Positions 52,200-62,993 of a stretch of DNA of 64,000 nucleotides are shown here, piece by piece. The notes under the pieces were generated by a model that was given only the letters and a program-made list of their open reading frames with translations, did no database searches and was not told where the DNA came from. The first letter of the stretch is position 1. Each line of letters begins with the position of its first letter. Source of the stretch: Flavobacteriales bacterium (GTDB taxonomy: Bacteria > Bacteroidota > Bacteroidia > Palsa-965); the NCBI GenBank assembly GCA_040377305.1, contig JBEIPA010000002.1:96001-160000 (forward strand). Reading direction: 5' to 3'. The translations under genes and the position numbers were made by a program.

Positions 52200-55100
52200 C
52201 TAATCAACGTTGTCGTGAAGAAATGAATTGTTCGGACGAATCTCGATTTTCTTCTCCTCGTTCTCAGTCAGAGTGAAACGTGATACCTGCGATTCAGATG
52301 AGTGAGGAACATTCTCGAGGTTAACGTTGCGGCGTTTGTAAGCTGGTTCGTTTTCCATTTCGTTCAACACTTGCGGGCTCTTCAATTTCAGGCTGATGTC
52401 GCGCAGTTTCTGGATGCGCTCATTCGCACGACGCTGGATATCTTCCTGCTCCGCTTTCTTAGCAGCTTCTTGCGGATCCATTTCCGCTTTCACTTCTTCC
52501 TTGAGGATGAGTGTTGGTTCAGCAACTTCTTCAACAAATGATTCTTCGATCGATGAAGTGATCTCGCTCATTGATGGAGTTTCCGTAAACTCTTCTGAAC
52601 TGAGTTCGCTGATTGGCTCGACAATTTCCTGAGACGTACTTACGATTTCAAACTCCACGCTTGTTGTTGAAGTCCACTCCGACTTCGTTTCAGCAACCGG
52701 CTCTATCGATTTAGATACGAGGAACGGCTCCAGCGGATTCACTTCTGTTTCTGCTACAGGAGGTGTGGTTGTTTCTGCTTTCGGTGCTTCAATAACTGTT
52801 CTCTCTTCGAGCTGACGAACAACTTTTTCAGGCTGTGATTTCGGAGCGTACTCGTAGTTCACAGGATTTGTTTGCTGGAATCCGGTTGCGATGATGGTCA
52901 CGCTCACTGAATCGCCAAGTGAAGTATCAACTCCGTATCCTTTGATTATTTCTGCAGTCTGACCAGCAGCTTCCTGGATGAAGTCGGTGATTTCACCAAG
53001 CTCGTCCATTGTGATTTCTTCAGAACCGGAGATGATATTCAGCAACACATAACGCGCGCCGATAATGTTGTTGTCGTTAAGGAGCGGAGAGTTCAGTGAC
53101 ATTTCCACTGCGCGTACTGCACGGTTCTCACCCGAAGCCACTGCCGATCCCATGATTGCCACACCGCTGTTGCGCATTACTGTGCAGATATCGGCGAAGT
53201 CAACGTTGATCTGTTGTGTGATGCTGATAATTTCTGCAATGCTCTTCGCAGCTGTTGTGAGTACATCGTCAGCGTGAGCAAACGCGTCGCTCAACTTCAG
53301 GTTGCCGTACATTTCACGAAGCTTGTCGTTGCGGATAACGAGAAGCGTGTCAACGTTCTGCTTCAGCAATTCGATTCCTTCTTCAGCATACTGGCGGCGT
53401 TTCTTTCCTTCGTGTGCGAATGGAACAGTAACGATACCAACGGTAAGGATTCCCAGTTCGCGTGCAACACCAGCAATTACCGGAGCTGCACCCGTTCCAG
53501 TTCCTCCACCCATACCAGCGGTGATGAACACCATTTTGGTATTGTTGGAAAGAATTGTGCGGAGATCTTCTATGTTTTCGATTGCGGCGTTGCGACCAAC
53601 TTCAGGAATTGATCCTGCACCACGTCCTTCGGTCAAAGTAGTTCCGAGAACCACTTTGTGAGGAACAGGGCTAAGGTCGAGTGCCTGTTTATCAGTATTG
53701 CATACAAGGAAATCAACACCCTTGATGCCGAGTTTGTACATGTGATTTACAGCGTTACTGCCGCCGCCGCCAACACCAATTACCTTGATGATAGACGAGT
53801 ATTCCGGAAGTTCGAATTTCATGGCTTCTTCGGATTTGAGATTAGTATGTGTGTGTGTTTCAATTTCGAATGTTGTTGTTTCAATAGTTTCACCTTCAAA
53901 CAACGGAAGCTCGCCAGGAAGCGAAGCATTGAAGCTTGCCTCTTCAGCGATGTCTTCGAACTCTGCTACTGGTTCAACTGCGTACATCCACGAGTGTTCT
54001 ACATTTACGAACACCGGTGTTGGAGTTTCAGCTACTGGATTTGCTTCTCCTGCTAGCTCGATAGGCTGGAATTCTTCGTTGAATATTGTGTTGTGTGACT
54101 CTGACATATTATGGTTTGCTGCTTCTGTGTTGGTAACGTTGCTTATCTCCCAGCCCATCTCAGTCGTACCGGTAGGCATTATCGTATCTTCTACGGTATC
54201 GGCAACGGGTGACATATTTATTTCAAAGGCCGGTTCAAGTCCGATTGCTTCGAGTGTTTCACTGATTACTTCCGGTGTAAATTCCGCGATCGGCATTTGA
54301 ACCGAATGTTCTTCGACCAGCGAAGCAAAATCAACATCTGCAACCGGATCGGCAGTCCATTCAGCTACCGGATCAGGGGTCCATTCTGCAACAGGATCAG
54401 CTACCACTTCAATTGATCCGGCAATTTCAACTTCTGAACTAATTTCTGAAATCAATTCTATTTCAGATTCAACTTTCCCAAGCGGCTCCATACTTATTTC
54501 CGCAAGCACGTCTTCGGATACTTCTGCAACGATCTCTTCAATCTCAACTGGAGCCAATTCTTCAACAACAGCAACAGTTGTTTCTTCAACAACCGCTTCA
54601 ACTGGCGAAACTGCTTCGATATCTGAAGTCACTACAACTTCCCCAACAACTTCAACTTCGCTTGTAATTTCTGCAACCGGAATAATTTCCAGTTCCTCTA
54701 CTGGTTCTACCTCATGATTAGCCTCGGCAGCAGATATAATATCACTGATCGGTTCTGAAACAATTTCAGATACCGGAACATTATGTGTTTCAACAATTGC
54801 AGCTTTCACTTCTTCATTGTTGTAATCGAATTCTTCATCATTCTCACCACCGATGTTTCCGAATCCCTTCATGATATCAGCAACGGAGCGAAACTTTGGC
54901 AATTCAACTTTTGGTTTCGCCTCAACCGGAACTTCTTCTTTCATTTCAGCATTCGCACCAATCTGATTCTCCAGGATGAACTTTGACGTTGTTTCTGACT
55001 CTTCTTTGGCCATCATCTCTGCCCATTCTTTGTCGAACTCCGCATCCCCAGTAGATTCTGCGACCGGACTAACCGGTGTAATTTTATTCACAGTTTCGTC

Positions 55101-55238
55101 CTGCTTCACAGCATCTTTGAAATTCCAGCGCTTTGGAAAACCATCGTTCGAAATCGGAGACGTGTTGTTCATTGACTGAGTGTTTGCCTTCTCCTCGTTC
55201 GATCCCATCTGATTGTTTGAAATTTCATTGAAATCCAT
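52200..55238 (-). CDS. ftsZ: Cell division protein FtsZ with long acidic N-terminal extension
   Basis: IKVIGVGGGGSNAV begins near residue 484; also NTD, GMGGGTGTG, NVDFAD, and the Bacteroidota C-terminus EPAYKR...NNSFLHDNVD. Confidence 0.95.
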   Translation of the reverse strand: MDFNEISNNQMGSNEEKANTQSMNNTSPISNDGFPKRWNFKDAVKQDETVNKITPVSPVAESTGDAEFDKEWAEMMAKEESETTSKFILENQIGANAEMKEEVPVEAKPKVELPKFRSVADIMKGFGNIGGENDEEFDYNNEEVKAAIVETHNVPVSEIVSEPISDIISAAEANHEVEPVEELEIIPVAEITSEVEVVGEVVVTSDIEAVSPVEAVVEETTVAVVEELAPVEIEEIVAEVSEDVLAEISMEPLGKVESEIELISEISSEVEIAGSIEVVADPVAEWTPDPVAEWTADPVADVDFASLVEEHSVQMPIAEFTPEVISETLEAIGLEPAFEINMSPVADTVEDTIMPTGTTEMGWEISNVTNTEAANHNMSESHNTIFNEEFQPIELAGEANPVAETPTPVFVNVEHSWMYAVEPVAEFEDIAEEASFNASLPGELPLFEGETIETTTFEIETHTHTNLKSEEAMKFELPEYSSIIKVIGVGGGGSNAVNHMYKLGIKGVDFLVCNTDKQALDLSPVPHKVVLGTTLTEGRGAGSIPEVGRNAAIENIEDLRTILSNNTKMVFITAGMGGGTGTGAAPVIAGVARELGILTVGIVTVPFAHEGKKRRQYAEEGIELLKQNVDTLLVIRNDKLREMYGNLKLSDAFAHADDVLTTAAKSIAEIISITQQINVDFADICTVMRNSGVAIMGSAVASGENRAVRAVEMSLNSPLLNDNNIIGARYVLLNIISGSEEITMDELGEITDFIQEAAGQTAEIIKGYGVDTSLGDSVSVTIIATGFQQTNPVNYEYAPKSQPEKVVRQLEERTVIEAPKAETTTPPVAETEVNPLEPFLVSKSIEPVAETKSEWTSTTSVEFEIVSTSQEIVEPISELSSEEFTETPSMSEITSSIEESFVEEVAEPTLILKEEVKAEMDPQEAAKKAEQEDIQRRANERIQKLRDISLKLKSPQVLNEMENEPAYKRRNVNLENVPHSSESQVSRFTLTENEEKKIEIRPNNSFLHDNVD

Positions 55239-58840: not shown

Positions 58841-59946
58841 TATTTCTTTTGTGCTTGTATGAGGGTTAATATTTCACCAGCTATGAGATCGGCTGCATTC
58901 GGTGTGGCCATCTGACCAATCTTAACTTCCAATTCGGTTCGCATTGTCTCATCCGCGAAAAGCTCAAGAATCTTCTTCGTAAGTTTTGAAGTTGCTTCTA
59001 CATCCTTTACCAACACTGCAGCACCTTTATTCACCAACGCCATTGCATTTTTCGTTTGGTGATCTTCTGCAACGTTCGGTGAAGGAACGAGAATGGACGC
59101 TTTCGCAACCAGACACAATTCAGAAACCGAACTTGCGCCAGCCCTCGAGACTACCAAGTCAGCTGCCGCGTATGCTAAATCCATTTTTGTAATAAAGTCG
59201 TTTACGAATACTCCTTCTAAACCTTCGGTGACTTTTTTTGCTTCCGGCAGAAATGCCTTTCCGGTCTGCCAAATTACCTGATAACCCGCAGAAGTGATTT
59301 CTTTGATTCCAGCAGCCATGCTCTGATTTAGCGTTCGCGCGCCGAGGCTTCCTCCAATCACCAGCAACGTTTTCTTATCTGCACTTAATGAGAAAAACTC
59401 CATTGCCCGCGGATGCTTTCCTTGCAGATTCAAAATATCCTGTCGTACCGGGTTTCCTGTAAAAATGATTTTCTCCTGAGGGAAATATTTCTCCATTCCC
59501 TGATACGCCACACAAATACGACTCACACGTGCCGACAAAACACGATTTGTAATTCCGGGAAACGAATTTTGCTCCTGAATCAGAGTTGGAACACCTGCTT
59601 TTGATGCAACGCGTAACATGGGACCGCTCGCGTATCCACCTGTGCCAATTACTGCATTCGGTTTGAAATCACGCATAATCTTTTTTGCGCGCATCAAGCT
59701 ACTTAATACTTTGAACGGAAATGAAAGATTTGCAAACGTTAGTTTGCGCTGGAGACCGCTAATCCACAATCCAACAATTTTGTATCCAGCTGCAGGAACT
59801 TTTTCCATTTCCATTCTACCTTCTGCACCAACGAATAAAAATTCAGCATCAGGTACGCGCTGCTTTAACGCATTCGCAATTGCAATTGCCGGAAAGATGT
59901 GTCCACCCGTCCCTCCTCCACTCACGATGAACTTAAGCGGCTGCAA
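58840..59946 (-). CDS. murG: Lipid II GlcNAc transferase
   Basis: GGGTGGH, GGYAS, EQN, GNPVR, GGSLGA, SRAGA. Probable TTG start at 59946, 5 nt after AAGGAGG. Confidence 0.96.
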   Translation of the reverse strand: MQPLKFIVSGGGTGGHIFPAIAIANALKQRVPDAEFLFVGAEGRMEMEKVPAAGYKIVGLWISGLQRKLTFANLSFPFKVLSSLMRAKKIMRDFKPNAVIGTGGYASGPMLRVASKAGVPTLIQEQNSFPGITNRVLSARVSRICVAYQGMEKYFPQEKIIFTGNPVRQDILNLQGKHPRAMEFFSLSADKKTLLVIGGSLGARTLNQSMAAGIKEITSAGYQVIWQTGKAFLPEAKKVTEGLEGVFVNDFITKMDLAYAAADLVVSRAGASSVSELCLVAKASILVPSPNVAEDHQTKNAMALVNKGAAVLVKDVEATSKLTKKILELFADETMRTELEVKIGQMATPNAADLIAGEILTLIQAQKK

Positions 59947-61105
59947 CCTTGCCTCCTTCCGAAACGCCATCAGCGCCTTCACCATTTTCGCGACTCACAC
60001 TCAGAATTATTCCGACTGCTATGCTTGAGAATAAAAGTGATGTTCCACCCATGCTTATGAATGGCAATGTTTGTCCGGTAACAGGAAACAGGCTTACGTC
60101 AACCGCCATGTGAATCAGTGCCTGAAAGACGACACTGAATGCTAAACCAATTGCGAGCAAGGATCCGAATGTCTTATCTGATTGTGTCGAGACTCGCACT
60201 CCCCGGAAGAGCAAGATGAGAAAAAGAAGTGCAATGAATGCTCCTCCGATCAATCCGTATTCTTCAATTATACTTGCGTAAATGAAATCGGAATAAGGAT
60301 GCGGGAGAGAATTTCTCTGTGTGCTGTTACCTGCACCTTTCCCTATGATTCCTCCCGTTGCAATTGCAATTTTAGCCTGATCCGACTGCAATCGTTTATC
60401 CGGATCGAGTTCAGCATCGCTGGTGAAATTTACAATACGTGACTTCCACGTGTTCACTCGCGGAAGTGCATCTTCCCAAACGGTTGCAATTCCGAGAAGT
60501 AAAACAAAACCAAGAACACCTATTCCCAGAACTCCTGCAATATATTTGAGTTTCACCCGTCCGATAAACATCAGGATGAGACAGGTTGTGAAGAGAAGAG
60601 CTGCCGTAGAAAAATTCGCCGGAAGGATTAGTCCACAGATTAGCGCTACGGGAATCATTATATGAATGAGTACGACCTTAAAGTCGTTTATCTCATCTTG
60701 TTTTTGTGTGAGTACCCTTGCGAGATACATGATGAGTGCTAGTTTCGCAAAATCGGAAGGTTGGAATGTCAAACCGGTTCCTGGAATTGGAATCCATCGA
60801 TTTGCATCATTCAGATTTGTCCCGCTTAATAAAGTATACAACAACAGAGGAACAGCTGCAAACAACATCAGTTGAGAAATACGCGAGTAGTACGTGTACT
60901 TGATCCGATGAGTAATGAACATGAGAACCAGACCGAGTAAGATTGTACGTAAGTGACGAAACAAATAATACTCCGTATCGCCATCATGATGTTTGTAAGC
61001 CAAAGTCACAATGGTAGAATAAACCGCAGCCAGCGACAACAATGAAAGTAACACGACGATCATCCAGATCACCCTATCACCTTTGAAATAGCCGAATACG
61101 TTCAT
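59933..61105 (-). CDS. ftsW: SEDS-family cell division protein FtsW
   Basis: RWI..FQPSDFAK, GGIIGKG, DFIYASIIEEYG, PVTGQTLPFISMGG. Confidence 0.95.
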   Translation of the reverse strand: MNVFGYFKGDRVIWMIVVLLSLLSLAAVYSTIVTLAYKHHDGDTEYYLFRHLRTILLGLVLMFITHRIKYTYYSRISQLMLFAAVPLLLYTLLSGTNLNDANRWIPIPGTGLTFQPSDFAKLALIMYLARVLTQKQDEINDFKVVLIHIMIPVALICGLILPANFSTAALLFTTCLILMFIGRVKLKYIAGVLGIGVLGFVLLLGIATVWEDALPRVNTWKSRIVNFTSDAELDPDKRLQSDQAKIAIATGGIIGKGAGNSTQRNSLPHPYSDFIYASIIEEYGLIGGAFIALLFLILLFRGVRVSTQSDKTFGSLLAIGLAFSVVFQALIHMAVDVSLFPVTGQTLPFISMGGTSLLFSSIAVGIILSVSRENGEGADGVSEGGKVAAA

Positions 61106-61129: not shown

Positions 61130-61639
61130 TCATTTCGTATATAATTCTGTCCTAACCGCGTCGCGGAAACTATTTCCACGATTGCGATAATTGTCAAACG
61201 CGTCATAACTCGGACAACCCGGTGCGAACAAAACCGACTTCGCATTGTTCCTGCTCAGTGTGTGTGCAGTTTTCACTGCTTCCTGGATATAAGTTGCACG
61301 GACAATAAGGTGAGCGCTCCCGCTAAAAGCCTCTACATATTTCCATGGCGTTGTTCCTAAACAAACAACTGCTGCAACCTTCTCCTTTATTAAACCACTG
61401 AGCTTGTACTGATCGCTTGCACGATCTGTACCGCCAATTATCAGCACCACCGGACCTTGTACATCGCGTAGTGCCAACCAGGCGAGATCAGTTGTCGTTG
61501 CCATAGAATGATTGATCCATGCAACTCCATCCTTCTCACACACCGTTTCAAAACAGTGCGATTCGTCGCCCTGCATTTTGAGACGTGCATTGATCAGCTC
61601 TTGCTGTTGTGAAAGTGTTTGATCGGTGGTTAAGTACAT
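61130..61639 (-). CDS. Stand-alone MurD C-terminal-domain paralog
   Basis: Aligns by eye to the last ~150 aa of the adjacent MurD (WINHSMAT, LIIGGTDR, VLFAPGCPSYDAFDNYRNRGNSF). Confidence 0.8.
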   Translation of the reverse strand: MYLTTDQTLSQQQELINARLKMQGDESHCFETVCEKDGVAWINHSMATTTDLAWLALRDVQGPVVLIIGGTDRASDQYKLSGLIKEKVAAVVCLGTTPWKYVEAFSGSAHLIVRATYIQEAVKTAHTLSRNNAKSVLFAPGCPSYDAFDNYRNRGNSFRDAVRTELYTK

Positions 61640-61658: not shown

Positions 61659-62993
61659 TTAAAGTGAACGAACTGCATTCTTAAACTGACGCCCGCGATC
61701 TTCATAATTTTCAAAAAGGTCGAAACTTGCGCAAGCGGGTGACAACAATACAGTGTCGCCCTTTTTCGCAAGTCGATACGAGAGGTTCACAGCTTCCTGA
61801 GCAGATCCCGCTTCGACGATGTTCTCAACTTTATCTCCAAACGCGGCAATGATCTTTGAATTGTCTGTGCCAAGGCAAACGATAGCATGCACTTTCGTCT
61901 GAACAAGTTCAAACAACTGACTGTAGTCGTTCCCTTTGTCGACACCGCCAACAATCCAAACAATGGATCCATTAACGCTTTCAAGTGCGTACCATGTAGA
62001 ATTTACATTAGTAGCCTTTGAATCATTTACCCAATCAATGTTATTGATACGGCCAACTGGTTCGAGGCGATGTTCAACACTCTGAAAGTCGGAAAGACTT
62101 TCACGTATTGCCTCTTTGCGCACTTCAACAAGACGTGCAGCGATGCCTGCTGCCATTGAATTGTATGCGTTGTGCCTTCCTTGTAATGCGAGTTCTTCGA
62201 TGTTCATAGTTAGCGGGTTGTTATTAGCGTTAATTGTTATCTGATTATTGGATATGTATGCGCCTGGATTAGGTTCTTTTAGGAGCGAGAATGGAAACTG
62301 CTTTGCGATGATGGTGCGTGACTGAATTTCTTTAGCAGAAACTTCATCATCGAGACACCAGATCAATGCATCGTCGGAAGTCTGATTCTGAATGATGCGC
62401 AATTTCGATGCAGCATAGTTTTCCATTTTGTATTCGTAGCGGTCGAGGTGATCAGGAGTAATATTTGTGATCACTGCAACATGGGCACGAAACGTAAACA
62501 TGTCGTCGAGCTGATAGCTGCTGAGTTCAAGTACAAAATATTCGTACTTGTTCTCTGAAACGAGCTGTGCAAAACTGTGTCCTACGTTTCCACCCAATGC
62601 CACATTATACCCTGCTTTGTGCAGGATGTGGTGAATGAGTGTTGCGGTAGTTGTTTTGCCATTGCTGCCTGTTACACAAATCATTTTTGCGTTTGTGTAA
62701 CGACCTGCGAACTCAATTTCAGATATCACCGGAATTCCTTTTGCTTTGATTTTTTGAATCATCGCAACTGTGGGTGGAATTCCCGGACTCTTAACAACTT
62801 CATCGGCATTCAGAATGAGATCTTCAGTATGCTGAAGCTCTTCCCATTCAATTCCAAGATTTAAAAGAACGTCTTTGTACTTCTGTTTAATTGCACTTTT
62901 ATCTGAAACAAATACTTCGTATCCCTTTTGCTTCGCCAGCACTGCGGTTCCGGTACCACTCTCTCCTGCTCCAAGGATCACCAACCGCTTCAT
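61659..62993 (-). CDS. murD: UDP-N-acetylmuramoyl-L-alanine--D-glutamate ligase
   Basis: KSPG, TGSNGKTT, ELSSYQL, DHLDRY, HRLE, NDSKATN, LSPACASFD. Confidence 0.97.
   Translation of the reverse strand: MKRLVILGAGESGTGTAVLAKQKGYEVFVSDKSAIKQKYKDVLLNLGIEWEELQHTEDLILNADEVVKSPGIPPTVAMIQKIKAKGIPVISEIEFAGRYTNAKMICVTGSNGKTTTATLIHHILHKAGYNVALGGNVGHSFAQLVSENKYEYFVLELSSYQLDDMFTFRAHVAVITNITPDHLDRYEYKMENYAASKLRIIQNQTSDDALIWCLDDEVSAKEIQSRTIIAKQFPFSLLKEPNPGAYISNNQITINANNNPLTMNIEELALQGRHNAYNSMAAGIAARLVEVRKEAIRESLSDFQSVEHRLEPVGRINNIDWVNDSKATNVNSTWYALESVNGSIVWIVGGVDKGNDYSQLFELVQTKVHAIVCLGTDNSKIIAAFGDKVENIVEAGSAQEAVNLSYRLAKKGDTVLLSPACASFDLFENYEDRGRQFKNAVRSL

Follow-up and report, generated by a model that had tools for sequence, protein, structure and literature searches.

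A stand-alone MurD tail gene at the murD-ftsW junction of Bacteroidia and a predicted internal translation start in murD

Analysis of the window, i.e., the whole stretch of 64,000 nt under study, led to a small extra gene, P0001, between murD and ftsW (Table 1). It begins 19 nt after the murD stop codon and ends 24 nt before ftsW; an earlier note had called an intact ORF of 169 aa at this place, and the call is confirmed. BLASTP showed a 40% identity with the neighbouring MurD (55/137 residues, E-value = 2e-34), confined to MurD residues 308-443, and murD is the only other match to P0001 in its own genome. The sole Pfam match is Mur_ligase_C (PF02875), at 24.2 bits against a gathering cut-off of 28.4 (E-value = 6.6e-5); the precomputed Mur_ligase_C domain is present in many of its relatives. 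TIGR01087 was matched at profile positions 286-440 of 441 with 108.6 bits against a cut-off of 211.95, and the profile search found neither Mur_ligase_M nor MurD_N in P0001, which is consequently not a three-domain MurD ligase. The AlphaFold model (pLDDT 87) consists of one N-terminal helix (residues 5-23) and a domain-3 core, and all the best Foldseek matches of this model are MurD chains (E-value = 1e-9, TMq 0.72), so that the structure modelling proposed in the earlier note recovered the domain-3 fold of MurD. Taken together, profiles and model describe P0001 as the last helix of MurD domain 2 followed by domain 3, without a nucleotide-binding or UMA domain. The former description as domain 3 only overlooked the last domain-2 helix, which the TIGR01087 match from position 286 includes. 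R19 of the N-terminal helix is likely the counterpart of the Arg that opens the last domain-2 helix of MurD. The latter helix (V291-F303) is highly conserved in most of the sampled Bacteroidia MurDs and is retained by many stand-alone copies. Because domains 1-2 and the P-loop are absent, P0001 cannot ligate. A role as one half of a split enzyme is unlikely, since the neighbouring MurD is whole and no partner ligase without domain 3 is present there; all 8 Mur_ligase_M matches of the genome sit in frames of 434-874 aa. Elsewhere in the genome, G000:C55:25285-25917 and G000:C60:55843-56430 point to a frame of 874 aa bearing the middle domain of a Mur ligase and to a second racemase-like gene that scores below cut-off. 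A sigma-70 scan gave 4 promoter-like sites against 2.9 expected, and 3 terminator-like sites were found against 1.2 expected.

Table 1. Coordinates of the genes and features discussed, in positions of the window.
Feature	Position	Strand	Remarks
Stand-alone MurD-tail gene P0001	61130..61639	minus	169 aa, intact ORF
Intact murD (P0002), parent of the fragment	61659..62993	minus	444 aa
ftsW	59933..61105	minus	Neighbour kept by the stand-alone copy when apart from murD
ftsZ	52200..55238	minus	472-aa N-terminal extension
N-terminal helix of P0001, residues 5-23, with R19	61571..61627	minus	R19 unchanged across 78 sequences of the own family
Last helix of MurD domain 2, V291-F303	62085..62123	minus	Sequence conservation
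Internal in-frame ATG Met263 (62205-62207) with 30-nt leader	62205..62237	minus	G-poor, A-rich, unfolded; predicted translation start
Predicted 182-aa C-terminal MurD proteoform, Met263 to stop	61659..62207	minus	Inferred; start shared with the least-diverged stand-alone genes
Changed nucleotide-side residues C29 (E. coli MurD R302), H44 (D317), M46 (K319)	61502..61555	minus	Alignment
Span with D-Glu-site residues T48 (E. coli MurD T321), R73 (K348), S144 (S415), Y151 (F422)	61187..61498	minus	Alignment

The gene belongs to a family. A protein search led to 97 relatives of 92-184 aa, and those source names that bear a taxon are Bacteroidia or Bacteroidota. The profile search for such junction genes in related genomes, which the earlier note had suggested, located a stand-alone gene between murD and ftsW in about 99 of 400 sampled Bacteroidia genomes, from 20 families. 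This count is a floor: 101 genomes had at least two matches to the family profile, of which 60 were re-searched (2 were a murD split over contigs) and 41 were read partly, and one genome scored negative held a 157-aa ORF in the murD-ftsW gap. Within the genus of the window a second match was present in 24/24 genomes, with a complete ORF in 22 and one cut by contig ends in 2. Overall, 92 primary copies were read (26 from the family of the window, 66 from others), plus 8 more degraded extra copies off the junction. The distribution is patchy in f21 (6/14 genomes) and f15 (4/12), and the junction lacks the gene in close relatives of carriers, namely four f21 genomes and one of f44. No copy was detected in 146 genomes of family f43, and the gene was found by profile A3 in 0/151 genomes from other classes of the phylum, where strongly diverged copies would escape; two double matches outside the class were dismissed as split murD. 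Current annotation names the genes of the family MurD, hypothetical protein or cyanophycin synthetase. The last name is also carried at NCBI by P0101 and P0102, two MurD tails of 182 aa. A search for phage homologues matched 12 records, among which H4 consists of host dcw DNA encoding a MurD of 444 aa and two are annotated murD; the short records of Listeria phages that match the C-terminal part of MurD (H6-H9) are probably host DNA.

A 157-aa version, here called Fluviicola-type, is homologous to the family (profile comparison probability 96%, E-value = 3e-9), and its model aligns with residues 292-446 of MurD 4BUC (Z 12.9, rmsd 5.0, 142 residues aligned). Every ligand motif has been lost in these copies and the fold has been kept; Pfam and Atlas returned no match for the protein. 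Its named records are mostly Crocinitomicaceae, including Fluviicola and Taishania, and Fluviicola chungangensis carries the stand-alone gene. Synteny is strong, with murD upstream and ftsW downstream in 75/80 loci. The Fluviicola-type gene of L243, a record titled Glaciecola amylolytica, is about 93% identical to that of L242, and several other titles also look mislabelled. An N-terminal helix with a hydrophobic-x-x-Arg pattern, which was written after viewing the sequences, occurs in 71/92 copies (shuffled mean 20) and in 80/80 Fluviicola-type ones, and is missing in 21/92 (mostly f42, f44, f10, most of f21 and four f39 rows). The fold and this helix are the most widely persisting features of the family.

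Selection was assessed by pairwise dN/dS against orthologs, as the earlier note had proposed, and proved to be purifying, not neutral. In 24 pairs whose dS was usable, the stand-alone gene has a median of 0.075 and a maximum of 0.21, and the final 150 codons of MurD have a median of 0.024, so that the gene evolves at about three times the rate of MurD domain 3. Values are 0.075-0.174 in the family of the window (15 pairs), 0.062 as a median in the Fluviicola type (67 pairs) and 0.10-0.16 in the third copies of f4, which lie away from ftsW; these pairs are non-independent and saturated ones were dropped. With 97 relatives, complete ORFs in 22 same-genus genomes and own-family values in this range, the former reading of an old, selected and non-catalytic duplicate stands. 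A pseudogene was rejected, as neither stops nor frameshifts nor a dN/dS near 1 were found in the stand-alone gene. The three-fold difference from MurD, together with the absence of the gene from some close relatives of carriers, could suggest a tandem duplicate that is neutral and slowly decaying. However, no pair with measurable dS exceeds 0.21, frames of similar length persist in 20 families and the fold is kept; decay is next to impossible on these selection data, which refute it unless the pairwise estimates are wrong.

Concerning origin, a single branch set the tandem copies apart in each of two quick trees (SH-aLRT 91 and 90, unstarred in both), the second of which omitted most near-duplicates and 13 rows that were long or extra. 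We favour one old duplication followed by losses as the putative history, although long branches may group the tandem copies. The 182-aa P0101 and P0102, as well as the tail of L301, were placed elsewhere among the Bacteroidia MurDs and not with the tandem copies, which suggests separate truncations. The unpublished genome G012 is an own-family row in the alignments, trees and dN/dS pairs, and G112 and G188 enter the genome tallies only; no claim rests solely on these three. Extra, more degraded copies outside the dcw cluster occur in f4, f45 and f49 (L119-L122, L124, L126-L128), and those of f4 bear a 5-residue deletion in the C-terminal D-Glu loop. The f4 third copies keep 8-9 of the 13 helix residues, while their domain 3 has merely a 25-26% identity. 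In f39 it is the MurD that lacks both the helix motif and Met263 (6/6), and the stand-alone copy has both. This MurD (L067, L068, L105, L112, L113, L115) is fast-evolving and groups weakly with distant MurDs; it may be a foreign replacement.

All four motif changes listed by the earlier note between MurD and P0001 were found as given, and the neighbouring MurD also has a Tyr at the F422 position. The same note had given R302 and D317 as contacts of ATP, K319 as a contact of UMA, and T321, K348, S415 and F422 as contacts of D-Glu. In the accessible text of PMC9780078, ADP is contacted by R302 and D317, and D-Glu by T321, K348, S415 and F422, in agreement with those roles; the K319-UMA contact is missing from that text. 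By alignment with E. coli MurD, P0001 has lost R302 and D317 (C29, H44) and keeps the D-Glu residues, with a conservative Lys-to-Arg change. P0102 and P0001 share a Lys-to-Met change at the K319 position. Across 78 own-family sequences T48 and Y151 never vary and the conservation of R73 and S144 is at least 90%, and such conservation of all four is seen in this family only. Specifically, loss of the ATP contact with retention of all four D-Glu residues was found in 23/26 own-family copies vs 1/66 of the others, and the reverse pattern in 31/92 copies. All four D-Glu residues are kept in 32/92 copies (9/66 outside the own family), and both ADP contacts in 40/92, none of which belongs to the own family. 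The K348 position is Lys or Arg in 48/92 copies.

The conserved quartet of the own family would suit a sensor of D-Glu or a related amino acid, in which the free amino acid would occupy the old pocket and the domain would pass a signal on to proteins of the Mur pathway or the divisome, and the gamma-carboxylate positions are each kept in as many as 82/92 copies. Nevertheless, outside the own family the four residues survive together in only those 9/66 copies, K348 is kept by the majority in just 7/20 families, and the Fluviicola-type copies have lost all four. Moreover, the affinity of MurD for its later ligands depends on shape changes driven by earlier ligands, according to the accessible portion of PMC9780078, and such changes would be beyond a lone domain. 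We therefore consider a sensor quite unlikely, and retention of the D-Glu pocket as the function of the whole family, as derived from the earlier reading, could not be upheld with 1/66 copies showing the pattern elsewhere and a Fluviicola type devoid of ligand residues. Possibly a carboxylate pocket has been retained in the lineage of the window alone. A missing supply of D-Glu was ruled out, as a glutamate racemase is present in the own genome above cut-off.

The gap between the gene and ftsW has a median of 13 nt (66 of 88 measured) and that to murD a median of 17 nt (83 of 88 measured), and many Fluviicola-type loci have a stop/start overlap with ftsW. Three times independently the gene became separated from murD, and each time it remained next to ftsW. 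In f45 (L123, L125, L134 vs L132, L133) the two left the dcw cluster together, away from murD and murG; in G366 a 4.5-kb insert follows murD and the gene is still with ftsW; and L276, L278 and L279 show the same. Additionally, the order of L301 is mraY, a 182-aa tail, ftsW and murG, with no full murD in the slot, as read from a single contig of 2.7 kb. A whole genome in which the tail replaces murD was not found among the best 150 rows of the 400 class genomes, nor in further sets of 80, 24, 14 and 146 genomes. Counter-cases are L196, with a gap between the gene and ftsW, G082, with inserts on both sides, and the third copies away from ftsW. The predicted complex of MurD, FtsW (residues 1-376) and P0001 scored 0.00, in a three-chain job unlike the calibration of the tool and without control runs, and speaks neither for nor against a contact.

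These loci also bear on a domain 3 acting in trans, which would dock on domains 1-2 of MurD and inhibit it or substitute for its own domain 3. Such an action would accord with the adjoining murD of most loci (the above median of 17 nt) and with the f39 copies, which keep nearly all catalytic-face residues and evolve slower than the adjoining MurD domain. On the other hand, the tail is kept in L301, where full murD left the slot, the gene leaves murD behind in the three separations, and in practically every genome read domain 3 of the neighbouring MurD is intact; an action in trans is accordingly distinctly improbable.

The FtsZ of the window harbors an N-terminal extension of 472 aa with 23% Asp/Glu and 4% Lys/Arg. 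The start context is strong at its first Met (7.43, top percentile) and weak at Met473 (0.07), which makes synthesis of the extension probable. In same-genus FtsZs the first Met and the GGGG motif are 96-271 residues apart, against a usual 18-23. Extensions shorter than that of the window are present in 5/5 same-genus loci and one sister genus, and in 0/13 other carrier loci; the tie between the stand-alone gene and the extended FtsZ drawn in the earlier note is not borne out, given these 13 carriers.

The murD gene itself encodes an in-frame Met263 in 191/201 sequences, with or without the extra gene. Its leader is rich in A (frequencies of 0.48-0.84 at -15 to -11 and 0.72 at -3) and contains on average 0.9 G in its 30 nt. 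Over the ten codons preceding Met263 we counted 49 synonymous G vs 200 expected (188 genomes), the lowest region of murD; the 15 lowest of 390 scanned windows all overlap the leader (gene median 1.02), and synonymous G is below expectation there in 37/38 families, GC-rich ones included. The leader is also the least folded of 38 murD points (-0.6 vs -2.2 to -9.5 kcal/mol, 60 genomes). Scored with a weight matrix from 694 automatically chosen own-genome starts, which is noisy and circular for true starts, Met263 has a median of 4.15, compared with 1.46 and -0.74 for two other conserved Mets and -2.21 for 6,638 control internal ATGs, and 82% of the Met263 sites lie above the 95th percentile of these controls. 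Met263 of the window scores just 1.71 (96th percentile of internal ATGs) and Met280 scores 1.21. Start determinants in F. johnsoniae are an A at -3, -12 and -13 plus low structure, as stated in the accessible part of PMC6847099, and since its features match these, the Met263 leader resembles a Bacteroidia start. Hence, murD contains a conserved in-frame start codon with the signature of an initiation region.

The least-diverged stand-alone copies and the 182-aa remnants begin exactly at this codon. Like MurD, the copies of f4 (4/4), f39 (5/6) and f76, as well as P0101, P0102 and L301, have 45 residues from the first Met to the hinge His, and this distance is shorter in more diverged copies (23-31 in most own-family ones). 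In control genomes of other classes Met263 was present in 12/19 readable genomes without the signal (median about -3), and in further Bacteroidia in 9/18 with a weak one (median -0.8). Given these controls, the Met and the helix motif are partly structural, the predicted start evolved in a subset and the signal is not class-wide. As many as 131/138 carriers keep Met263 in murD, so the stand-alone copy is usually no replacement for the predicted short form. No conserved Bacteroidia promoter motif was found upstream of codon 263 (best position 8/189); the G-poor open stretch could possibly be an RNA processing site.

A start-like signal under nucleotide-level selection even in genomes without the gene would also be expected if the internal start and the stand-alone gene mainly loaded ribosomes upstream of ftsW-murG, the protein just folding harmlessly. 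The short gap to ftsW, the Fluviicola-type overlaps and ligand residues that are free to vary between lineages are consistent with such coupling. Yet dN/dS values of 0.06-0.17 and lineage-specific conserved Trp and Arg residues speak for a selected protein, the ftsW of the window has a strong start itself (6.04, top percentile), and the f4 third copies are still selected far from ftsW, so that translational coupling is an unlikely explanation.

We prefer a reading in which the murD of this Bacteroidia branch probably makes a second product of 182 aa from Met263. The 3' part of murD would have been duplicated from this predicted start, giving rise to the stand-alone tail gene. Any duplication or deletion keeping the 3' end of murD would yield an expressed gene at once, and this would explain the fixed breakpoint at Met263. 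The chances are even that P0001 is a freed copy of the short product with a docking or regulatory part in FtsW-dependent wall synthesis, and not a helper of the MurD reaction. It is an evenly balanced proposal, too, that the tail works on the side of FtsW by contacting other proteins with its last domain-2 helix and the surface of domain 3; the role at FtsW is a likely one judged from gene order. In the family of the window, a carboxylate ligand may still occupy the old D-Glu pocket and modulate the contact. The broadest version is more tentative, somewhat short of an even chance: murD would be a two-product gene in a large branch of Bacteroidia, whose Met263 tail regulates FtsW-dependent synthesis, is retained even where the ligase is lost and has given rise to genes of its own, P0001 among them.

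Compared with the MurD ligase (TIGR01087; PDB 1UAG-4UAG, 7U35, 4BUC), P0001 shares sequence (40%), fold, the D-Glu residues of its lineage and the place in dcw. It differs in lacking domains 1-2 and the P-loop, in the changed R302/D317/K319 and in being a separate gene beside an intact murD. The family separates the MurD tail from its chemistry, so that a non-catalytic role is testable alone, and, if the proposal is true, an essential and much-studied antibiotic target has an unrecognised second function. Two-product bacterial genes with an internal in-frame start include infB, cheA and clpB. As in these, the internal start of murD is conserved, and it is predicted to yield a protein that is shortened at the N-terminus and lacks the catalytic parts. 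Unlike them, its short form also exists as separate genes, its signal is of the A-rich, G-poor Bacteroidia type and its product is predicted. A literature search, largely without subscription journals, led to no report of a two-product Mur ligase gene, a stand-alone MurD tail or an internal murD start. MurT/GatD, the C-terminal domains of FolC and the plastid RNA polymerase chain 8R5O_Q also harbor the Mur-ligase C-terminal fold outside the classical stem-peptide ligases, but they are parts of larger proteins, far more distant than MurD, with no evidence of a shared function. Finally, natural MurD-FtsW fusions exist in Proteobacteria and Actinobacteria according to the accessible text of PMC10214165, which treats a physical link by Mur ligases between precursor synthesis and the division machinery as an open question. 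Like the tail genes, the fusions described there link FtsW with the C-terminal end of MurD at this junction, whereas in the present loci the tail has become a free protein.
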